Source: Shewanellaceae bacterium UBA2521
GTDB lineage: Bacteria; Pseudomonadota; Gammaproteobacteria; Enterobacterales; Shewanellaceae
Assembly: GCA_002341165.1 (NCBI GenBank)
Contig: DDNL01000009.1
Span: 4,370-19,168 of the forward strand
Reading direction: 5' to 3'
Length of the DNA stretch: 14,799 nt
Part shown: in pieces, positions 2,149 to 14,607 of the stretch
How positions within the stretch are numbered: position 1 is the stretch's first letter
Layout: every line of letters starts with the position of its first letter
Notes under the pieces: model-generated
Databases searched by the model: none
The model's input: only the letters and a program-made list of their open reading frames with translations
Told to the model about the DNA's origin: nothing
Translations under genes and position numbers: made by a program

Positions 2149-4440
2149 ATGATGTTTAAAAAAAATAACCTTGCAATCCTAGTAGGATTTACTTTTTGTA
2201 CACCAAAGCTCTTTGCTCAGGAAGTTCAGCAGTTAGATACTGCCCATATTCAAGCTGAACATGTTGAAGAAGAGGATGTTATTGCGCCTCAAAGCCTTGT
2301 GACATCGGACGCTATTGATCGTGATTTGATACAAGATAGTGTAGATCTCTTTAAACATGATTCTGGTGTTATCATTACAGAAGGATCACGAGGTGGTATT
2401 GCCTCTATTCAAGTTCGTGGTCTTGGTCAGGATCGAGTGAAGGTCATTATGGATGGACAGTCACAATCAACTTTTACTGTGAAGGGTGGTTCTGTCCCTT
2501 ATATTGATTCAAGTATGCAGCTTTCTGATCCTGAATTTATTAAACAAGCTAAAGCCATCAAGGGTGCGCAGTCGAGTCGTTATGGTTCTGGAGCTATGGC
2601 CGGTGTTGTTAAAATTGATACCAAAGATCCCGAAGACTTAACGAAAGGTAAACCTTTCGGTGGATACCTTAAATCTGGCTATCGATCCAAAGATGCATCC
2701 TTTAAGCAAACACTAGGGTTGGCGACAGAACATGAATCTTTTAGAAGTTTATTGATGCTATCTTATTTACAAGGTGAAGAATTACAGCGTTCAAGTGATT
2801 TCATCTATCAATCAAATGATACAAAGTATTTAGAAAAAAAGAACCTAAATATCCTAGCTAAAATGGCTTACCGTCTAAATGATAGCCATGATCTTAAAAC
2901 CTATTATCTTTCATCACATGGTGATAATGAATCTGACTTAATCCACACAACGAAAAAAGACTACCATTCTGACGACCAAAACAGAAGATACCAGATAGGT
3001 TTAAGTCACGATTGGAATCAAGACTTAACGGTGGCAGACCATATCAAAACACAAGTGACATGGTCAGAGAAAAAGAATCAACAAAAGACAAGCTGGCTTG
3101 AACTTGGATCTCAAGCTCAAGCTCAATCTCCACATGGGCATGTTCATGGGCATGGTGCAGGTGATCATGCACATGGTACAGCCGGTCATGCACATGGGCA
3201 TGTTCATGCACATGGTACAGGCGATCATGCACATGGTACAGCCGGTCATGCACATGGTGCAGGTGGTCATGCACATGGTGCGAATCAAGCAAAAACAGAT
3301 GTAAAAGATAAGTCTAAGCTTAAGGATTATCGCTATAAATCAACCCACCTTTCTATAAAAATCGATGCGGACAAGAAGAACGACGTTTTTGATACGCATT
3401 ATGGTGTAAGTTTTGATACCATCAAGAATGCGAATGATAATACCGAGTATACGACTGTTGACGGCAAAAGGTCTCAAAGGAATATTTTTTATACACCAGA
3501 AGTTAGCACAAACCTTTATGCGGGATACGTTTCAACGGATATTAAATTGTTCGAAGAACAGCTTATCGTGAAGCCATCGATAAGGTATGACTATGTTGGT
3601 ATCAAGCCCCAGAGAGCATCTTTATCAGCAGCAATCAACAAGAAAACGCCTGATTATACATTTTCGCATGTGAGTAAAGGGCTGGCTTTAGAGTGGTTGC
3701 CGACACAACAACACAAGCTTGTTTTATCTGTCAAGGAAGGTTTTAGAACTCCATCTTATCACGATTTATTTTTCCAATGGGAAAACCCGGCATATCAATA
3801 TGCAGTGGTACCTAGTGCTGATTTAAAAGAAGAGACCGCGATCAATTACGGTATAGATTATACCTATAACTCTTTGCAGTCTCGCACGTCGTTAAGGTTA
3901 TTCTACAGTGATTACGATGATTTTATTGATACAAATTCAACAAAAGAAGATGGTATATCTATACAACGTAATACCAATATTGCTAAAGCAACCATTAAAG
4001 GTATTGAGTTTTCTCATGTTGTTTATTGGCAAAGTGACTTAGCTACAGCAGAAGGATTTTCAACAGGTTTCTCTGCTCAATACTACAAAGGTAAAGATCA
4101 GCACGGAAATCGTCTCAGCAGCGTTTCGCCTTGGTCAATGAATTTAAATCTGAGCTATGATGGCGTAGGCAAGATGTGGGGTACAGGCCTTAAAACAACT
4201 TATACAGCGAAGTCAAGCAGTGTTAGTAAGAATAGCATTGAGATTCCAAGCGTAAAGATGATGGACTTTACCCTTTATTATAAGCCTATCGAGCGCATAA
4301 AATTGACGGCTGGAGTCTTCAATATTTTAGATCAAGAGGTTTACAAATGGACAGAAGTCAAAGATGCAAGTAAGCCTTTGACAGATAGAATGAAGCAAGC
4401 AGGGCGTAACTACGGTCTTTCTATTGCTTACCAATTTTAA
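2149..4440 (+). CDS. TonB-dependent outer-membrane receptor, heme/hemoglobin-receptor-like, with a His-rich insertion
   Basis: Start taken as ATG 2149, giving signal peptide MMFKKNNLAILVGFTFCTPKLFA/QEV. The plug motif is IQVRGLGQDRVKVIMDGQ. FRTPSYHDLFFQWENP resembles the FRAP...H...NPNL heme-receptor signature. The C-terminal barrel strand ends ...GLSIAYQF. Heme-gene context supports the call. Confidence 0.88.
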   Translation: MMFKKNNLAILVGFTFCTPKLFAQEVQQLDTAHIQAEHVEEEDVIAPQSLVTSDAIDRDLIQDSVDLFKHDSGVIITEGSRGGIASIQVRGLGQDRVKVIMDGQSQSTFTVKGGSVPYIDSSMQLSDPEFIKQAKAIKGAQSSRYGSGAMAGVVKIDTKDPEDLTKGKPFGGYLKSGYRSKDASFKQTLGLATEHESFRSLLMLSYLQGEELQRSSDFIYQSNDTKYLEKKNLNILAKMAYRLNDSHDLKTYYLSSHGDNESDLIHTTKKDYHSDDQNRRYQIGLSHDWNQDLTVADHIKTQVTWSEKKNQQKTSWLELGSQAQAQSPHGHVHGHGAGDHAHGTAGHAHGHVHAHGTGDHAHGTAGHAHGAGGHAHGANQAKTDVKDKSKLKDYRYKSTHLSIKIDADKKNDVFDTHYGVSFDTIKNANDNTEYTTVDGKRSQRNIFYTPEVSTNLYAGYVSTDIKLFEEQLIVKPSIRYDYVGIKPQRASLSAAINKKTPDYTFSHVSKGLALEWLPTQQHKLVLSVKEGFRTPSYHDLFFQWENPAYQYAVVPSADLKEETAINYGIDYTYNSLQSRTSLRLFYSDYDDFIDTNSTKEDGISIQRNTNIAKATIKGIEFSHVVYWQSDLATAEGFSTGFSAQYYKGKDQHGNRLSSVSPWSMNLNLSYDGVGKMWGTGLKTTYTAKSSSVSKNSIEIPSVKMMDFTLYYKPIERIKLTAGVFNILDQEVYKWTEVKDASKPLTDRMKQAGRNYGLSIAYQF
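3133..3279 (+). repeat. Coding His-rich low-complexity tract (17 His in 49 aa) with an internal ~60-nt duplication
   Basis: HGHVHGHGAGDHAHGTAGHAHGHVHAHGTGDHAHGTAGHAHGAGGHAHG. The string GATCATGCACATGGTACAGCCGGTCATGCACATGG occurs twice, about 60 nt apart (near 3162 and 3222). This tract generates three overlapping shadow ORFs in the track. Confidence 0.9.
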
Positions 4441-4517
4441 ATCAAATTGTTTTGTAAATTGATACCTGATTTTTGTGATATAAATCTTAAACATCATTTA
4501 CGAGCAAGACGCTAAAA

Positions 4518-4553
4518 AATAGCGAAGGTCAGGTTACCTTCGCTATTTTTTTT
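4518..4553 (+). terminator. Rho-independent terminator downstream of the TonB-dependent receptor gene
   Basis: Perfect 12-bp stem AATAGCGAAGGT (4518-4529) / ACCTTCGCTATT (4536-4547), 6-nt loop, then a T-run to 4553. An A-run precedes the stem, so it could act bidirectionally. Confidence 0.8.
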
Positions 4554-4781
4554 GTGCTACACCTATGATGATAGGTGCTGCTTTATTGACTTAATCGTTG
4601 CATATCTAAAAAATGTTGTACGATAATGCACTAAAATTTATATGATAAAAGTAAGCGGTATGCATAATATTTCTTCAACCAATTTATTTCGTATTATTAA
4701 TAAAGCACCTAATAAAGAGATACCCAACTAACATCACTCTATTTAAGTTCATTCAACGAAACCTTTTGACTAAATCATTAA

Positions 4782-4815
4782 ATGGATATCTTTGGAGAAA
4801 ATACAAGACATCCAT
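4782..4815. repeat. Dispersed hairpin-repeat family, site a: right-arm motif followed 8 nt later by left-arm motif
   Basis: AATCATTAAATGGATATCTTTGG (arm at 4782-4795), then CAAGACATCCAT (4804-4815). The same two motifs occur at 5157-5244 in the opposite order. The arms here pair with 11 Watson-Crick pairs, 1 mismatch and 1 bulge. Confidence 0.6.
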
Positions 4816-4844
4816 AGAGTTTAGTTACACCCCAAAAATATATA

Positions 4845-4897
4845 TTTTTTGTTTTTTTTGTTTTTATTTTGTTTTGTTTTTGTTTTTTTATTTTTTT
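4845..4897 (+). repeat. 53-nt T-rich tract (T4-T8 runs interrupted only by single G or A)
   Basis: TTTTTTGTTTTTTTTGTTTTTATTTTGTTTTGTTTTTGTTTTTTTATTTTTTT. It lies between the repeat element and the small GG-leader ORF. Confidence 0.85.
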
Positions 4898-4965
4898 ATG
4901 TTAAGTTAAATGCGCCATCAAAATATGGTTAAAAATAAATTTAAAAAAATAAAGAGGATGTTAAA

Positions 4966-5133
4966 ATGAAAGTCATTCAAAAAGAAAATTTATCTCAAGT
5001 TTCCGGTGGTTTTTTAGAGACTCTATTTGTCTCAACTTTTATTGCTACTGTCGTCAATATGATTACAGAAGATGAACCATCTGTAATTGTCGCTTATGAT
5101 AGCAGCAAAGAAGGTTGGATTAATAATAGATAG
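4966..5133 (+). CDS. Small secreted-peptide precursor with a double-glycine leader (class II bacteriocin/microcin-like), 55 aa
   Basis: Below the ORF-track size cutoff. AAGAGGA (4952-4958) lies 7 nt upstream of the ATG. Translation: MKVIQKENLSQVSGG/FLETLFVSTFIATVVNMITEDEPSVIVAYDSSKEGWINNR. The 15-aa leader aligns position-for-position with the colicin V leader MRTLTLNELDSVSGG, with hydrophobic residues at -12, -7 and -4 and VSGG at -4 to -1. Confidence 0.55.
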   Translation: MKVIQKENLSQVSGGFLETLFVSTFIATVVNMITEDEPSVIVAYDSSKEGWINNR

Positions 5134-5156
5134 TAAATCATTTACATACAATAAAA

Positions 5157-5244
5157 CCAAGACATCCATCTAAAAAAATCGATCTAAGTTTGACGTATTT
5201 TATGTAAAAACTTATTGAATTAATCATTTAATGGGTGTCTTTGG
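5157..5244. repeat. Dispersed hairpin-repeat family, site b: complete ~88-nt unit with terminal inverted arms
   Basis: CCAAGACATCCAT (5157-5169) pairs with ATGGGTGTCTTTGG (5231-5244): 12 Watson-Crick pairs, 1 T-G wobble and 1 bulge. The first ~40 nt align with site c (CAAGACATCCAYCT.....AAATYGATYTARGTTTGA). Confidence 0.6.
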
Positions 5245-5303
5245 TTTATTACTTTGATGATAATGATTACATTATTTTATGACCTGTGCATGCTATATAA
5301 AAA

Positions 5304-5328
5304 CTGAAGCTTGTTAAACAAGCTTCAG
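5304..5328. terminator. Terminator-like perfect palindrome at the truncated end of the IS3 remnant
   Basis: CTGAAGCTTGTT-A-AACAAGCTTCAG, a 12-bp perfect inverted repeat. On the minus strand it is followed by TTTTT. On the plus strand the tail is only TTATAT, so it is more convincing for minus-strand transcripts. Confidence 0.5.
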
Positions 5329-5362
5329 TTATATCGACGTATCAATAAAAATCATAAAAAAG

Positions 5363-6031
5363 GTGTTATGCTCTGTTCAGCCAGATAGTTTTGAAACGCT
5401 TTTGCTAAATATTGAGCACCTTGGTCGCTATGAAACAGCAAAGGCTCCGTCGGCTTACGCAGGTTGATGGCCATTCTTAAAGCTTCGAGCACCAAGTTGG
5501 TGTTTTGGGTAGATTAAATACGCCAGCCAATGACTCGGCGAGAATGCAAATCCGTCACCACCGCCAAATAGCACCAACCTTCTGCGGTTCGCAAGTAAGT
5601 GACATCGCCAGCCCAAGCTTGATTGACAGACTCAGGGTTAAAGCGTTGATTCAACTCTTTTTGAGCTTCTGTTTTGGGTTTAATGAGCGATAAGGGCTTT
5701 TTCGGCGCTGTTTGACCACCAAACCCAGCTTGTTCATGAGACTTCTGGTCTTATAACGGCCAATTTTAAAGCCCTCACGGCGCAAATGCTGCATCATTTG
5801 CCTTGAGCCTAAGCTTTGACGGCTGGCTTTAAAAAGCGCCTTACAACGCGATTCCAGTACTTTTTGGGCAACATAAGGCTGCGATTCTGGCTTCTTGAAC
5901 CAATCGTAAAAGGCGCTGCGACTTACTTTCAAGACCTGACACATCAGCAAAACCGGGTAAACCGCCTGATAAGTCTCAATGAAGCGGTACTTTACTTCAT
6001 TTCTTTGGCAAAAAATGCGCTGGCTTTTTTT
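5363..6031 (-). pseudogene. IS3-family transposase OrfB (rve/DDE integrase), pseudogene
   Basis: Own translation from the A7 site in the -1 frame gives ...KYRFIETYQAVYPVLLMCQVLKVSRSAFYDWFKKP...[10 protein letters not shown]. The frame then breaks at a T5 run (5698-5702; 6 would restore it). Reading resumes as [60 protein letters not shown], followed by an in-frame TAA at 5514-5516. It continues STQNTNLVLEALRMAINLRKPTEPLLFHSDQGAQYLAKAFQNYLAEQSIT and then homology ends. Confidence 0.8.
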
Positions 6032-6282
6032 AAGATTTCATGCTCTTGCTGCAAACGCTTATTTTCACGGCGTAAGCGCATTAATTCAGCGCGTTCTTCG
6101 GGTCTTAAAGCTCCTTCAGCCTGGTTTTTCTCGTACTTGACCTTCCAATTAGAAAGGATTTTTGCGGTCACGCCCACAGTTTCAGAAGCCTCTTTTAGGC
6201 TATAATTATGCTCTAAAACCAGTCTGACTGCTTTGTCTTTAAATTCCTGAGTATAGGTCCTATATTTGCGTTTTTCTGTCAT
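5992..6282 (-). CDS. IS3-family transposase OrfA (HTH)
   Basis: Start taken at ATG 6282-6280, with GAGGTG 4 nt upstream. MTEKRKYRTYTQEFKDKAVRLVLEHNYSLKEASETVGVTAKILSNWKVKYEK...LRRENKRLQQEHEILKKASAFFAKEMK is the canonical IS3/IS911 OrfA pattern, including the leucine-zipper end and the A7 frameshift window. Confidence 0.8.
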   Translation of the reverse strand: MTEKRKYRTYTQEFKDKAVRLVLEHNYSLKEASETVGVTAKILSNWKVKYEKNQAEGALRPEERAELMRLRRENKRLQQEHEILKKASAFFAKEMK

Positions 6283-6341
6283 GATCACCTCGGATTGAGT
6301 GTTTATTGTCCACCATTTAAATGTCCGGTTCAATTAGACCA

Positions 6342-6431
6342 TAATAGTCTTATATTTGCGTTTTTCTGTCATGATTACCTCGGGTTGAGTTTTTATTATC
6401 CACTATTTAAATGTCCGGTTCAATTAGACCA
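6342..6431 (-). mobile_element. Solo left end of a second, related IS3-family copy (IR, 5'UTR and about the first 9 orfA codons)
   Basis: 6351-6431 repeats 6261-6341 with 5 mismatches in 81 nt, at a 90-bp period. It includes the same TGGTCTAATTGAACCGG terminus (ending 6431) and ATGACAGAAAAACGCAAATAT. It stops where the full copy's terminus begins. Confidence 0.75.
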
Positions 6432-6444
6432 TAATATAGCCCAA

Positions 6445-12001: not shown

Positions 12002-14365
12002 ATGTTAAATACTAAGAATTATATATATTTTATTTTTCTTTTTATATTAGGCTGTGCAGACAGTTCTGAATTTAATATTATTGAAGAAATGCAAGGACAA
12101 CCTGCTCAAGGAGGACAACCTGATCAAGGAGGACAACCTGATCAAGGAGGACAACCTGACCAAGGTGGACAACCTGATCAAGGAGGACAACCTGACCAAG
12201 GTGGACAACCTGACCAAGGAGGACAACCTGACCAAGGAGGACAACCTGACCAAGGAGGACAACCTGACCAAGGAGGGCAACCTGACCAAGGAGGGCAACC
12301 TGACCAAGGAGGGCAACCTGACCAAGGAGGAAGCAACTCGAACCCTCAAAAATTTATTTTTTTCAACCAAAACAATCTTGAAAGTGATACCACAGGAGCT
12401 TTAAGTGGTACCGTGCACTTTGCTCAAAGCACAATCATGCCATCTAAAAATAAAATAAAAGATGATATCCAACCGCACCTTGTTTCTCAGCGTAAAGCTT
12501 TAGTTCTATTTAAGTCTCCAGATTTAGCAGAAGATAAAAACTTAAAAATGAGTATCTATGATAAAAATAATACACTTATTTATCAAAGTAATATGAACCA
12601 TCCCTCGAAATTACCTGCTATTGAGGGGGAATCTATAGAACCTATTTCTTTCAAAAATTTTGAACCTAATCAAACTCTAAATCTCAATACTCAAGCCCAA
12701 TTAAATGATCTTAAAGAAGATCTTTCGGGACAAAGATTAAGCTATTTCTTTAATACATTTGACTTTATTCATGTTCAAACCCAAGATGGAATACATATCG
12801 ATGACTTTCATCTACCTCTTCTCGCTAAAGGTTCTGAAAAGCATATACGTTTTTCATCTAGAGCTGGCTATGATTCAACCATTTACTTTTCAGGCTTAAA
12901 AAGATCCCTTAAAACGAATTTTGTCTTCGATTTTAAGTTCCAGAATCAAACTTGGTACATGAAAAGTCATATGAATCGTATAAAATACGGTTATTTTTGG
13001 AGTGCCCCCTTACCTAAGCAACATGTAAAACCTGGTATAAGTATTCGATTTACGCAAAATGGAGAAAATGGTCTGCTCAGTGCTCATGACATCAAAGTAG
13101 GTCCTGAAATCGAGTTACTTTTACACACCATTGACTTAGGGTTTCTGACTCCTTATCGAGATGAGTTTGACTTTCAAAAAAAAGATAAAAATCATATTGA
13201 GTATTATCAAACTATTCCCATAACAAAACTCATTGTGTCACGATATGAACCTCAACACTTTAAGACTGTAGGCTTACCCGATGGAACAGTCTACAACAGT
13301 AAAAGTGCAACCGACGGCGGTGTCTATACAGGTGATATGCGAAAAATTGGAAAAATTCTTATATCACATGGTATTAATTTAGCTAATTATGGTCTGACTT
13401 CATCTCATCCAACGAGTGAAAGTCCGCACAAATATATGGCTAATCAGATTACAATTCATAACTCTCAAGGTATCTATACAGATAAAGACTCAAAAGCATC
13501 AAAAAAAGTGATTCATGGCTTATCTGGAGGCAATGGTATGCTTACCTTGTCCGATTCTGAAGGTAATGAATTCAGTCATGAAATGGGGCATGCACTAAGT
13601 TTAGGACATTACCCAGGTGGCTTTGAAAGAAGTGTGCATCGCCCAGCACATATGATCAACTCAACTTGGGGGTGGGATAGTGTTCGTAATGAATTTACAC
13701 CTAATTTCGAGCATTATCCTACGAATAAACCTACCAAATATGATGGAGGCGCGAAAGATAAAGATAAAGGGAAGACTGTACAGCCTTTTCATGGACATAG
13801 TTTTGGCAAAGACTCTATGGGAGATGGAAGTCCACTCTATTCGAATCATTACACTTTATTTACTCCCTATACCATGAATAAAATGCAAAAATTTTTGGAG
13901 CGAACACCTCGCTTTGATAAGAATTCATCCACGGGCTTTTCTGTATGGGATGCTAATAAACAGGAATATAGAGAGGCTGCTAATAACGTATCTTCTTCAC
14001 GTAGAAAAGACTTCGGTGTACCTGTAGTCACTTTAGTGGGATATTATGATCCAACTAATACCATTAAATCCTTTGCCTATCCTGCTTTATACGGTAGCTA
14101 TGGTCATACTTATTATAGCTTCCCTAAATGGTTCAATAGCAAATGTCAGCTCACCGTCAAAAACGCTCGTAGAAAAAAAGTAACATTCTTCTTAAATGAC
14201 CGTGTCATTTTAAGAAAAAATATGAATAAATATCATGTCAATATTGCGCAATCATTTAAACCTACGAGTTACGATATAAAATGTCATGGTAAATTTGTTT
14301 TGCCTTCGTTTGCTATTAAACCTAAGAAATTTAATTTAAAAACCCATATTGTAGAAAGCCCTTAA
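12002..14365 (+). CDS. M66-family zinc metalloprotease lipoprotein (StcE/TagA-like mucinase family), 787 aa
   Basis: Lipoprotein signal MLNTKNYIYFIFLFILG-C (lipobox ILGC). The motif NEFSHEMGHALSLGHYPGGFERSVHRPAHMINSTWGWD parallels StcE NEFSHELGHNYGLGHYVDGFKGSVHRSAENNNSTWGWD (HExxHxxxGH). Further StcE-like blocks are SSTGFS.W, FGVPVVTLVGYYDP, YPALYGSYG, CQLTV and MNKYHVNI. Confidence 0.85.
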   Translation: MLNTKNYIYFIFLFILGCADSSEFNIIEEMQGQPAQGGQPDQGGQPDQGGQPDQGGQPDQGGQPDQGGQPDQGGQPDQGGQPDQGGQPDQGGQPDQGGQPDQGGQPDQGGSNSNPQKFIFFNQNNLESDTTGALSGTVHFAQSTIMPSKNKIKDDIQPHLVSQRKALVLFKSPDLAEDKNLKMSIYDKNNTLIYQSNMNHPSKLPAIEGESIEPISFKNFEPNQTLNLNTQAQLNDLKEDLSGQRLSYFFNTFDFIHVQTQDGIHIDDFHLPLLAKGSEKHIRFSSRAGYDSTIYFSGLKRSLKTNFVFDFKFQNQTWYMKSHMNRIKYGYFWSAPLPKQHVKPGISIRFTQNGENGLLSAHDIKVGPEIELLLHTIDLGFLTPYRDEFDFQKKDKNHIEYYQTIPITKLIVSRYEPQHFKTVGLPDGTVYNSKSATDGGVYTGDMRKIGKILISHGINLANYGLTSSHPTSESPHKYMANQITIHNSQGIYTDKDSKASKKVIHGLSGGNGMLTLSDSEGNEFSHEMGHALSLGHYPGGFERSVHRPAHMINSTWGWDSVRNEFTPNFEHYPTNKPTKYDGGAKDKDKGKTVQPFHGHSFGKDSMGDGSPLYSNHYTLFTPYTMNKMQKFLERTPRFDKNSSTGFSVWDANKQEYREAANNVSSSRRKDFGVPVVTLVGYYDPTNTIKSFAYPALYGSYGHTYYSFPKWFNSKCQLTVKNARRKKVTFFLNDRVILRKNMNKYHVNIAQSFKPTSYDIKCHGKFVLPSFAIKPKKFNLKTHIVESP
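12092..12331 (+). repeat. 18-bp in-frame tandem repeat encoding QGQPAQ-(GGQPDQ)x12-GG
   Basis: Twelve full units lie between 12110 and 12325, at an exact 18-nt period. They differ only at synonymous positions (GAT/GAC, GGA/GGT/GGG), with variants clustered along the array. The array produces two long shadow ORFs in the track. Confidence 0.95.
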
Positions 14366-14482
14366 CCTTTGTTTTTATATCTGTTCTAAATAGGTTTTGC
14401 ATGGCGCATAAAAACTGTTTTGCCTGCACCGCGAACGCCCGAGATAAAAATTGTTTCATGCAAAAAAACAAAAGGAAAAAAA

Positions 14483-14556
14483 CAAGACATCCACCTCAGT
14501 GAAATTGATTTAGGTTTGAGCCGTGGAACCTTTTCATTAGGATATTAGGTGGGTAT
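14483..14556. repeat. Dispersed hairpin-repeat family, site c
   Basis: CAAGACATCCACCTCAGTGAAATTGATTTAGGTTTGAGCCG aligns with site b 5159-5196. The left arm ACATCCACCT (14487-14496) pairs with AGGTGGGTAT (14547-14556): 8 Watson-Crick pairs, 1 T-G wobble at the same position as in site b, and 1 mismatch. Confidence 0.55.
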
Positions 14557-14607
14557 ACATGTGTATCTAAAATTAATGTAAAATAAAATATTAATAATCT
14601 TTAAAAT

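Follow-up and report, generated by a model that had tools for sequence, protein, structure and literature searches.

The window analysed here is a 14,799-nt stretch of contig C64 (C64:4370-19168) in the assembly of Shewanellaceae bacterium UBA2521, and the whole of that assembly (2.28 Mb, 95 contigs, 38.7% G+C, 96% complete) was searched in the work described below. The genes that neighbor the repeats in the window encode a heme TonB-dependent receptor, HutZ, and an M66 (StcE/TagA-like) peptidase. A preliminary description of this DNA had reported a dispersed element with terminal inverted arms, and copies of this element, which we call E, lie in the window as follows, with coordinates counted from the first nucleotide of the window:

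4717-4795, plus strand: degenerate full E copy; left arm AGATACCCA at 4718-4726, right arm TGGATATCT at 4783-4791, span 74 nt
4804-4814, plus strand: solo E left arm CAAGACATCCA, an exact match to the motif, directly 3′ of the degenerate copy
5150-5251, plus strand: full E copy; left arm AGACATCCA at 5160-5168, right arm TGGGTGTCT at 5232-5240
14475-14569, plus strand: full E copy; left arm AGACATCCA at 14485-14493, right arm TGGGTATAC at 14550-14558, span 74 nt

The copy at 5150-5251 begins 19 nt past the stop codon of a 55-aa double-glycine-leader ORF (4966-5133), and it contains the two motifs first used to bound the unit, CCAAGACATCCAT (5157-5169) and AATCATTTAATGGGTGTCTTTGG (5222-5244), which are present as described and do pair. 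Its middle has gained 8 nt and lost 1 nt, which makes the span 81 nt, and its palindrome is extended by an A-run and a T-run in the flanks. It is found by nhmmer with an E-value of 9e-14 and by cmsearch with 71 bits (E-value 4.6e-11), and the 102-nt stretch has a minimum free energy of -26.3 kcal/mol (z = -5.2). The copy at 14475-14569 is located 112 nt downstream of the M66 peptidase gene (12002-14365) and contains what had been described as a third locus at 14483-14556; the outer half of its right arm is degenerate, and its inner stem, CCACCT/AGGTGG, exceeds that of other copies in length (nhmmer E-value 4e-16; cmsearch 70 bits, E-value 7e-11). The motifs that had been seen back-to-back at 4782-4815 are the right arm of the degenerate full copy followed by the solo left arm. 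A degenerate left arm had also been suspected at 4728-4740; such an arm does exist, but it is AGATACCCA at 4718-4726, and from this position the distance to TGGATATCT is the standard family span of 74 nt. The degenerate copy is found with E-values of 7e-5 by nhmmer (C64:9086-9164) and 1.5e-4 by cmsearch (C64:9077-9171), and it folds no better than its shuffles (z = +0.19).

Some other features lie close by. The 55-aa ORF has the double-glycine-type leader MKVIQKENLSQVSGG, and tblastn found no paralogue of it in the genome. At 5302-5330, a short way past the 5150-5251 copy, lies a hairpin that resembles a canonical terminator: it has a perfect stem of 13 bp, a loop of 3 nt, and, on the minus strand, a T-tail. 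At 6257-6436, a 90-nt tandem direct repeat of 93% identity lies over the 5′ end of an IS3-family remnant, and sequence related to this repeat comes after a truncated E at C64:2433.

In the genome as a whole, iterated nhmmer found 32 non-overlapping copies of a ~95-nt repeat (E-values of 1e-21 to 1e-3) on 18 of the 95 contigs, while cmsearch gave about 21 distinct matches, and metagenome contigs from related strains contain further copies. Exact matches to the 11-mers CAAGACACCCA and CAAGACATCCA number 19 and 12, where 0.7 and 1.0 are expected, and the 10-mer AAGACAYCCA occurs 51 times compared with 7 for the reversed control. The three exact matches to CAAGACATCCA in the window (4804, 5158, and 14483) are unremarkable as a count by themselves. 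Every one of the 32 copies is intergenic, in a genome that is ~86% ORF-covered. Three more copies are on C64 a short way upstream of the window (C64:134, 1972, and 2433), and for eight copies a contig end is no more than about 150 nt away. The genome-wide search proposed in the preliminary description thus shows E to be a real multi-copy family far above chance, and the idea of a dispersed element with terminal inverted arms is supported by its 32 copies, its invariant inverted arms at a fixed spacing, and its intergenic placement.

The arms of E, AGACAYCCA on the left and TGGGTGTCT on the right, are inverted and nearly invariant, with per-position agreement of 27-29/29 and 20-26/26 in the arm logos, and most full copies have an outer-to-outer arm span of 74 nt. 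The palindrome can be extended to about 16 bp with one bulged base into A-rich left flanks and TGAWTTT-type right flanks; the A-run before the left arm is conserved, and some copies have a T-run after the right arm. Any general T-rich asymmetry is no more than slight. The middle of E is conserved and polar but not symmetric (..TTGATTTARGTTTG..AACCTTTT..), and the covariance model scores 80-92 bits on the plus strand versus 26-45 bits on the reverse strand. Mean pairwise identity among the 24 full copies is 67.5%, and that 17 of the 24 are free of indels at this level of identity argues for constraint on length. The best match to an IHF consensus in the middle of E has 12 of 13 positions in a check by eye only, and we claim no IHF site. 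A literature search with the arm sequences returned unrelated primers only.

The preliminary description had argued for selection on a paired structure from an apparently compensatory 2-nt indel, in which CC inserted in one arm is matched by GG inserted in the other. The gap-free family alignment shows in-register substitutions instead: in the copy at 14477 compared with that at 5152, CCATCT on the left has become CCACCT and AATGG on the right has become GGTGG. Of these changes, one truly swaps T:A for C:G and two convert mismatches into pairs, and across the family the two pairs concerned are unpaired in 8 of 18 copies. A T-G wobble had also been taken as a sign of pairing in plus-strand RNA, but the T at arm position 6 is present in 4 of 18 copies, and over all pairs the count of G·U-type to A·C-type is 39 to 29, so we see no plus-strand RNA signal.

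Pairing was also examined over the family as a whole. RNAalifold retains only seven arm pairs, at -1.0 kcal/mol and with 0 compensatory changes. A hand-drawn long hairpin of 26 pairs is 77-78% paired compared with 35-51% in slid controls, but its pairing is mostly a matter of conservation because shuffles give 76-77%. With 18 copies, the covariation score was reached by 19 of 500 shuffles; with 29 model-aligned copies, it was 0.158 versus 0.126 in shuffles and was reached by 0 of 500, in a test that overstates support for related sequences and for model-fitted alignments. Nearly all changes on both sides of a pair in the 29 copies fall in the inner helix, where 7 of 8 pairs covary, and z for single-sequence folds of E copies ranges from about +0.2 to -5.2, with typical values close to -2.5. 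In helix 1, the count of both-side changes in the nine core arm pairs is 0, and mismatches in the arms are uncompensated. A conserved fold is weakly supported, and the covariation of the inner helix means that a folded form, whether ssDNA or RNA, may be under some selection. From the invariance of the arms without compensation, we infer that they point to sequence recognition rather than pairing. We read E as a genuine imperfect palindrome whose arms are recognized as sequence and whose inner stem is under at most modest selection.

Among the alternatives, E might act as RNA, as a long imperfect hairpin in the 3′ UTR that works as a bidirectional terminator, protects the mRNA 3′ end, or is processed to a small RNA. 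The position of E is in keeping with this: most copies are 1-110 nt past a stop codon, and spacers between convergent (~7 by manual count) or tandem (~10) genes are favored over divergent ones (~3). Copies are split about evenly, however, between the two orientations with respect to the upstream gene, and at least one copy, C18:1884, lies between divergent gene starts. Because of the conserved A-run before the left arm, RNA from the reverse strand ends in a stem plus U-run, and some copies have a T-run after the right arm as well; folding z values typically of -2 to -5 and the covarying inner helix also fit. Against this, the terminator scan called separate canonical short hairpins beside the window copies (4560-4577 and 5302-5330) and left E uncalled. 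Having been passed over by the scan and having an interior of about 56 nt, E was rejected as an intrinsic terminator, which consists of a short G+C-rich stem, a loop of 3-8 nt, and a U-tract. Homologous genes do keep E after the stop codon in two pairs, in opposite orientations within each pair (the hydrolase paralogues of L045 and a small ORF in L042 and L044), which a 3′-end function would also explain. The Rfam scan of the window gave no match overlapping E at an E-value of 1 or less, and its sole match in the window was a chance mir-15 hit at 4490-4572. With the RNAalifold result, the G·U to A·C ratio, and arms that are conserved as sequence and do not covary, we consider an RNA role for E unlikely, and the small structured RNA under pairing selection that had been suggested finds no support in the family.

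The hydrolase paralogues of L045 are themselves a tandem pair of alpha/beta-hydrolase genes (L045:1653-3560 and 4034-5920) with ~83% nucleotide identity, each followed by an E.

E is concentrated in accessory and phage-defence islands. Outside the window, it is found next to genes for AT3-SGNH, alpha/beta hydrolase, a beta-lactamase-fold protein, RTX, Sel1, HsdR, and SIR2. In the C35 defence island (L012, C35:10000-29698; L053), which holds RnlA/RnlB, GmrSD, two HEPN proteins, and AIPR and adjoins dcd-radC-rpmB, E lies between systems. Co-oriented arrays are present on C64 (six copies, plus), on C35 (four, minus), and on the metagenome contig L043 (four to five, plus), and the copies in these arrays, spaced 0.6-9 kb apart, bound modules of one to three genes in either orientation, with 0.6-5 kb as the spacing of these modules. 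Single copies are also located beside core genes, namely pdxJ and a flotillin gene. We found no protein family that recurs near E, including any recombinase or cognate protein, and no tRNA near the arrays that would suggest tRNA-linked integration. The orientation of E versus contig GC skew is suggestive but is confounded by gene strand and by the non-independence of arrays.

Co-oriented arrays that delimit small modules are also what would be seen if E were a gene-cassette recombination site, that is, an attC analogue for a non-IntI recombinase or for one absent from the assembly, that reshuffles accessory and defence modules. The metagenome scan returned six marine contigs with E, three of them identical to the assembly and three (L042, L043, and L044) absent from it, so related strains carry further E-bounded genes, and cassette content would vary between them. 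A synteny breakpoint falls exactly at an E in the comparison of L042 with C82, homogenization within an array reaches 95-99%, and the length of E is strongly constrained; both attC sites and REPs are known targets of IS1111-family elements (PMC11187229). Integrons abound in this bacterial family, with the TIGR02249 cut-off for IntI passed by 23 of 31 genomes, none of them in this genus. In the genome itself, the best IntI match is 87 bits against the 265-bit cut-off, and the sister genome also has none; the end logos of E show no conserved AAC or GTT of the RYYYAAC and GTTRRRY cores. E also has no likeness to the attC sites of a relative's superintegron, and on these three grounds its identity as an integron attC was ruled out. 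The covariance model has a match in 0 of 40 relatives, single copies stand beside pdxJ and the flotillin gene, and the same gene with its E was never seen in two different contexts. We therefore hold a cassette site to be rather improbable, and slimmer still is the prospect that E, in a reduced-genome lineage without intI, is the site of another cassette system that replaces the integron functionally with an architecture of its own.

The superintegron of that relative (L067, G013:C1:1708000-1727600) is of the classic type; its 19.6 kb contain at least 33 attC sites, each ~120 nt long.

Beyond this genome and the marine contigs, we did not find E. The 40 relatives without a covariance-model match include the sole same-genus genome, which is 62% complete and in which the arm motif occurs 9 times compared with 7 for the control, with no enrichment. 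No match came from two pattern scans over 185,579 species representatives or from searches of plasmid, phage, and viral collections. E is lineage-specific and absent from every other genome searched.

E sits at synteny and rearrangement breakpoints. L042 and C82 have their left flank and the same E in common, with 2 mismatches, and then diverge completely; this pair is one orthologous E copy in two strains. On L043, the second E (E2) abuts a tyrosine-recombinase (integrase) gene that lacks its 5′ half, an intact homologue of which is at C92:50475-51641. Partial duplications of E ends are found beside full copies at 4804 in the window, at C9:27-70 and C87:4196, at E2/E3 of L043, and on L042. 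Three L043 copies are 95-99% identical from AAAACAAGAC through ~12 nt beyond the right arm. There is one clear segmental duplication, of an E plus 134 nt of flank on C43, and the flanks of most copies are unrelated to each other. The E copies are old, with no near-identical pairs that would suggest a recent burst except for the L043 trio and the L042/C82 pair.

The preliminary description had raised the possibility of a MITE-like mobile element and proposed checks for it. The dispersed element with inverted arms stands, but what would mark a strict MITE was not seen: there is no target-site duplication at the ends of 24-29 copies, where the flanks continue the palindrome instead, and neither a parental IS nor an empty site was found. 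In the empty-site search, the window locus was 100% identical in five independent assemblies, and the sister genome (G001) is too diverged and incomplete and has no syntenic or homologous region. For the marine-metagenome contigs that were placed on the window, the E sites are outside their coverage, and the filled/empty comparison among strains showed only breakpoints at E.

An insertion sequence has landed in a number of E arms. Junctions of the form ATGG[G/A]TG followed by ATGAAATGGACGCTCC were found five or more times (C67, C13, C40, C75, C18, and L045), and junctions of the form ..GCGTCCATATA followed by TGTCTTG five times (C39, C35, C31, C75, and L045). Every junction falls in an E-type arm at one fixed position, with the TG apparently duplicated, and the IS has ends of its own in the form of 11-bp inverted repeats, ATGGACGCTCC. 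Transposase fragments match annotated IS110-family genes (tblastn with an N-terminal fragment) and PF02371 (E-value 6.6e-8), and a Pfam search with the 75-aa N-terminal transposase fragment gave no match. The IS110/IS1111 family is recognized by a DEDD-type transposase with a Transposase_20 C-terminus, a single fixed target position, and subterminal inverted repeats, and judged by these characters the IS in the E arms is a member. The assembly holds no intact copy, and the transposase fragments contain stop codons. Insertion of this element in E arms is the reason for several of the contig ends. Stretches of the IS110/IS1111-family element in E arms are as follows:

L014 (C67):12-390
L019 (C13):1-174
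L017 (C40):5600-5695
L018 (C75):1-120
L008 (C18):1-89
L056 (C31):3963-4262

IS110/IS1111 elements target REPs, attC sites, and transposon ends via a guide RNA (PMC11187229, PMC11208160, PMC12288879), and IS621, ISPpu9/10, and ISPa11 insert in REPs (PMC11187229, PMC12288879, PMC11208160).

A ~70-nt miniature that consists of the two IS ends only is present at about L045:5983-6060, where it has inserted into a solo E arm that lies 3′ of the second hydrolase paralogue. The gene for a 630-aa protein (L056:1394-3286; C31:39393-41285) adjoins a remnant of the IS110-family element, and the protein has weak Pfam matches to the diphtheria-toxin T domain and the clostridial neurotoxin translocation domain. 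Other E copies are cut short by another IS-like end (..CTTCTTCCCGCAAAT..), which is likewise multi-copy. The point of truncation varies from copy to copy, so this sequence does not insert site-specifically. It is found at the following places:

L006 (C39):9157-9250 and 18700-18760
C75:865-958
C18:4566-4646
C16
C31:39223-39288

Very improbable, finally, is that E is an inactive, decayed remnant of an old terminator or mobile-element end, passively multiplied by segmental duplication in islands and merely recognized as sequence by the IS; the 67.5% mean identity, the C43 duplication, and solitary short hairpins with the E stem sequence (C80:2127-2158 and C35:27931) would fit, but most flanks are unrelated, the copies are spread over 18 contigs, and near-absent indels and invariant arms at such divergence argue for constraint.

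We favor, with a probability of about 0.55, the reading that E is a lineage-specific, BIME/MITE-like interspersed DNA repeat and not an RNA gene, and that it is a module-boundary marker, a recombination hotspot, and an IS landing pad. The E family is a new case of a well-known type of bacterial repeat and not a new RNA gene. Under this DNA-repeat reading, the arms would be sequence-specific DNA recognition sites for a putative trans-acting recombinase, transposase, or nucleoid protein, possibly in the form of an extruded hairpin or cruciform. Copying or exchange of the unit would take place in DNA, through non-autonomous transposition, recombination between copies, or both. As portable homology, the unit would shuffle and truncate neighboring accessory genes, and it may offer the IS110-family element a safe place to land. 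Any terminator or mRNA-hairpin effect would be secondary.

The analysis provides a sequence model for E, which marks the flexible, defence-rich parts of the genome of an uncultured marine bacterium and explains many breaks in its assembly. E also adds to the natural cases in which an IS110/IS1111 (bridge/seek-RNA) element is programmed to target a palindromic repeat of its host, and it raises the testable question of whether such repeats can organize accessory-gene arrays in a lineage that lacks the integron of its relatives. As a passive repeat and nothing more, E would be an unremarkable part of the genome.

Three kinds of known system bear comparison with E. The attC sites of integrons, among them the VCR-like sites of superintegrons in this bacterial family, are, like E, imperfect palindromes (60-140 nt) in co-oriented arrays that separate strain-variable accessory and defence genes and are homogenized within the array, and some IS1111 elements target attC sites as the IS110/IS1111 element does E. 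The spacing of E is much wider than that of attC, and unlike attC, E occurs as single copies next to core genes.

The MITE-type repeats Correia/NEMIS of Neisseria, ERIC/IRU, and RUP have a bent middle and are units of ~100 nt with terminal inverted repeats and a conserved interior that can form a long hairpin, and they are intergenic and restricted to particular lineages. E is like them in its size, terminal inverted repeats, interior, hairpin, and dispersal, and as a small non-coding unit in many dispersed copies it has these features of a MITE. It differs in having much fewer copies, no sequence similarity to any of them, and neither a target-site duplication nor a parental IS that we could find; no autonomous IS with E termini was found in the assembly, and the IS110-family element uses E as a target.

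The 96%-complete assembly has 0 matches to the RAYT/Y1 transposase (PF01797), and no TnpB gene was found in the genome; an identity of E with REP/RAYT or IS200/IS605 was ruled out on these two counts, and without a RAYT, E is not a strict REP. The BIME/REP repeats of Enterobacteria and Pseudomonas number in the hundreds and are spread over the core genome, whereas E has ~32 copies in islands and co-oriented arrays, lacks a GTAG-type head, and is unrelated in sequence. Like E, though, they are intergenic imperfect palindromes of ~40-150 nt with inverted arms around a conserved linker, they lie mostly after the 3′ ends of genes, and they are rearrangement hotspots and specific insertion targets of IS110/IS1111 elements. 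In its architecture, as far as this can be judged from sequence, E appears closest to a BIME or to a Correia/ERIC-type unit.
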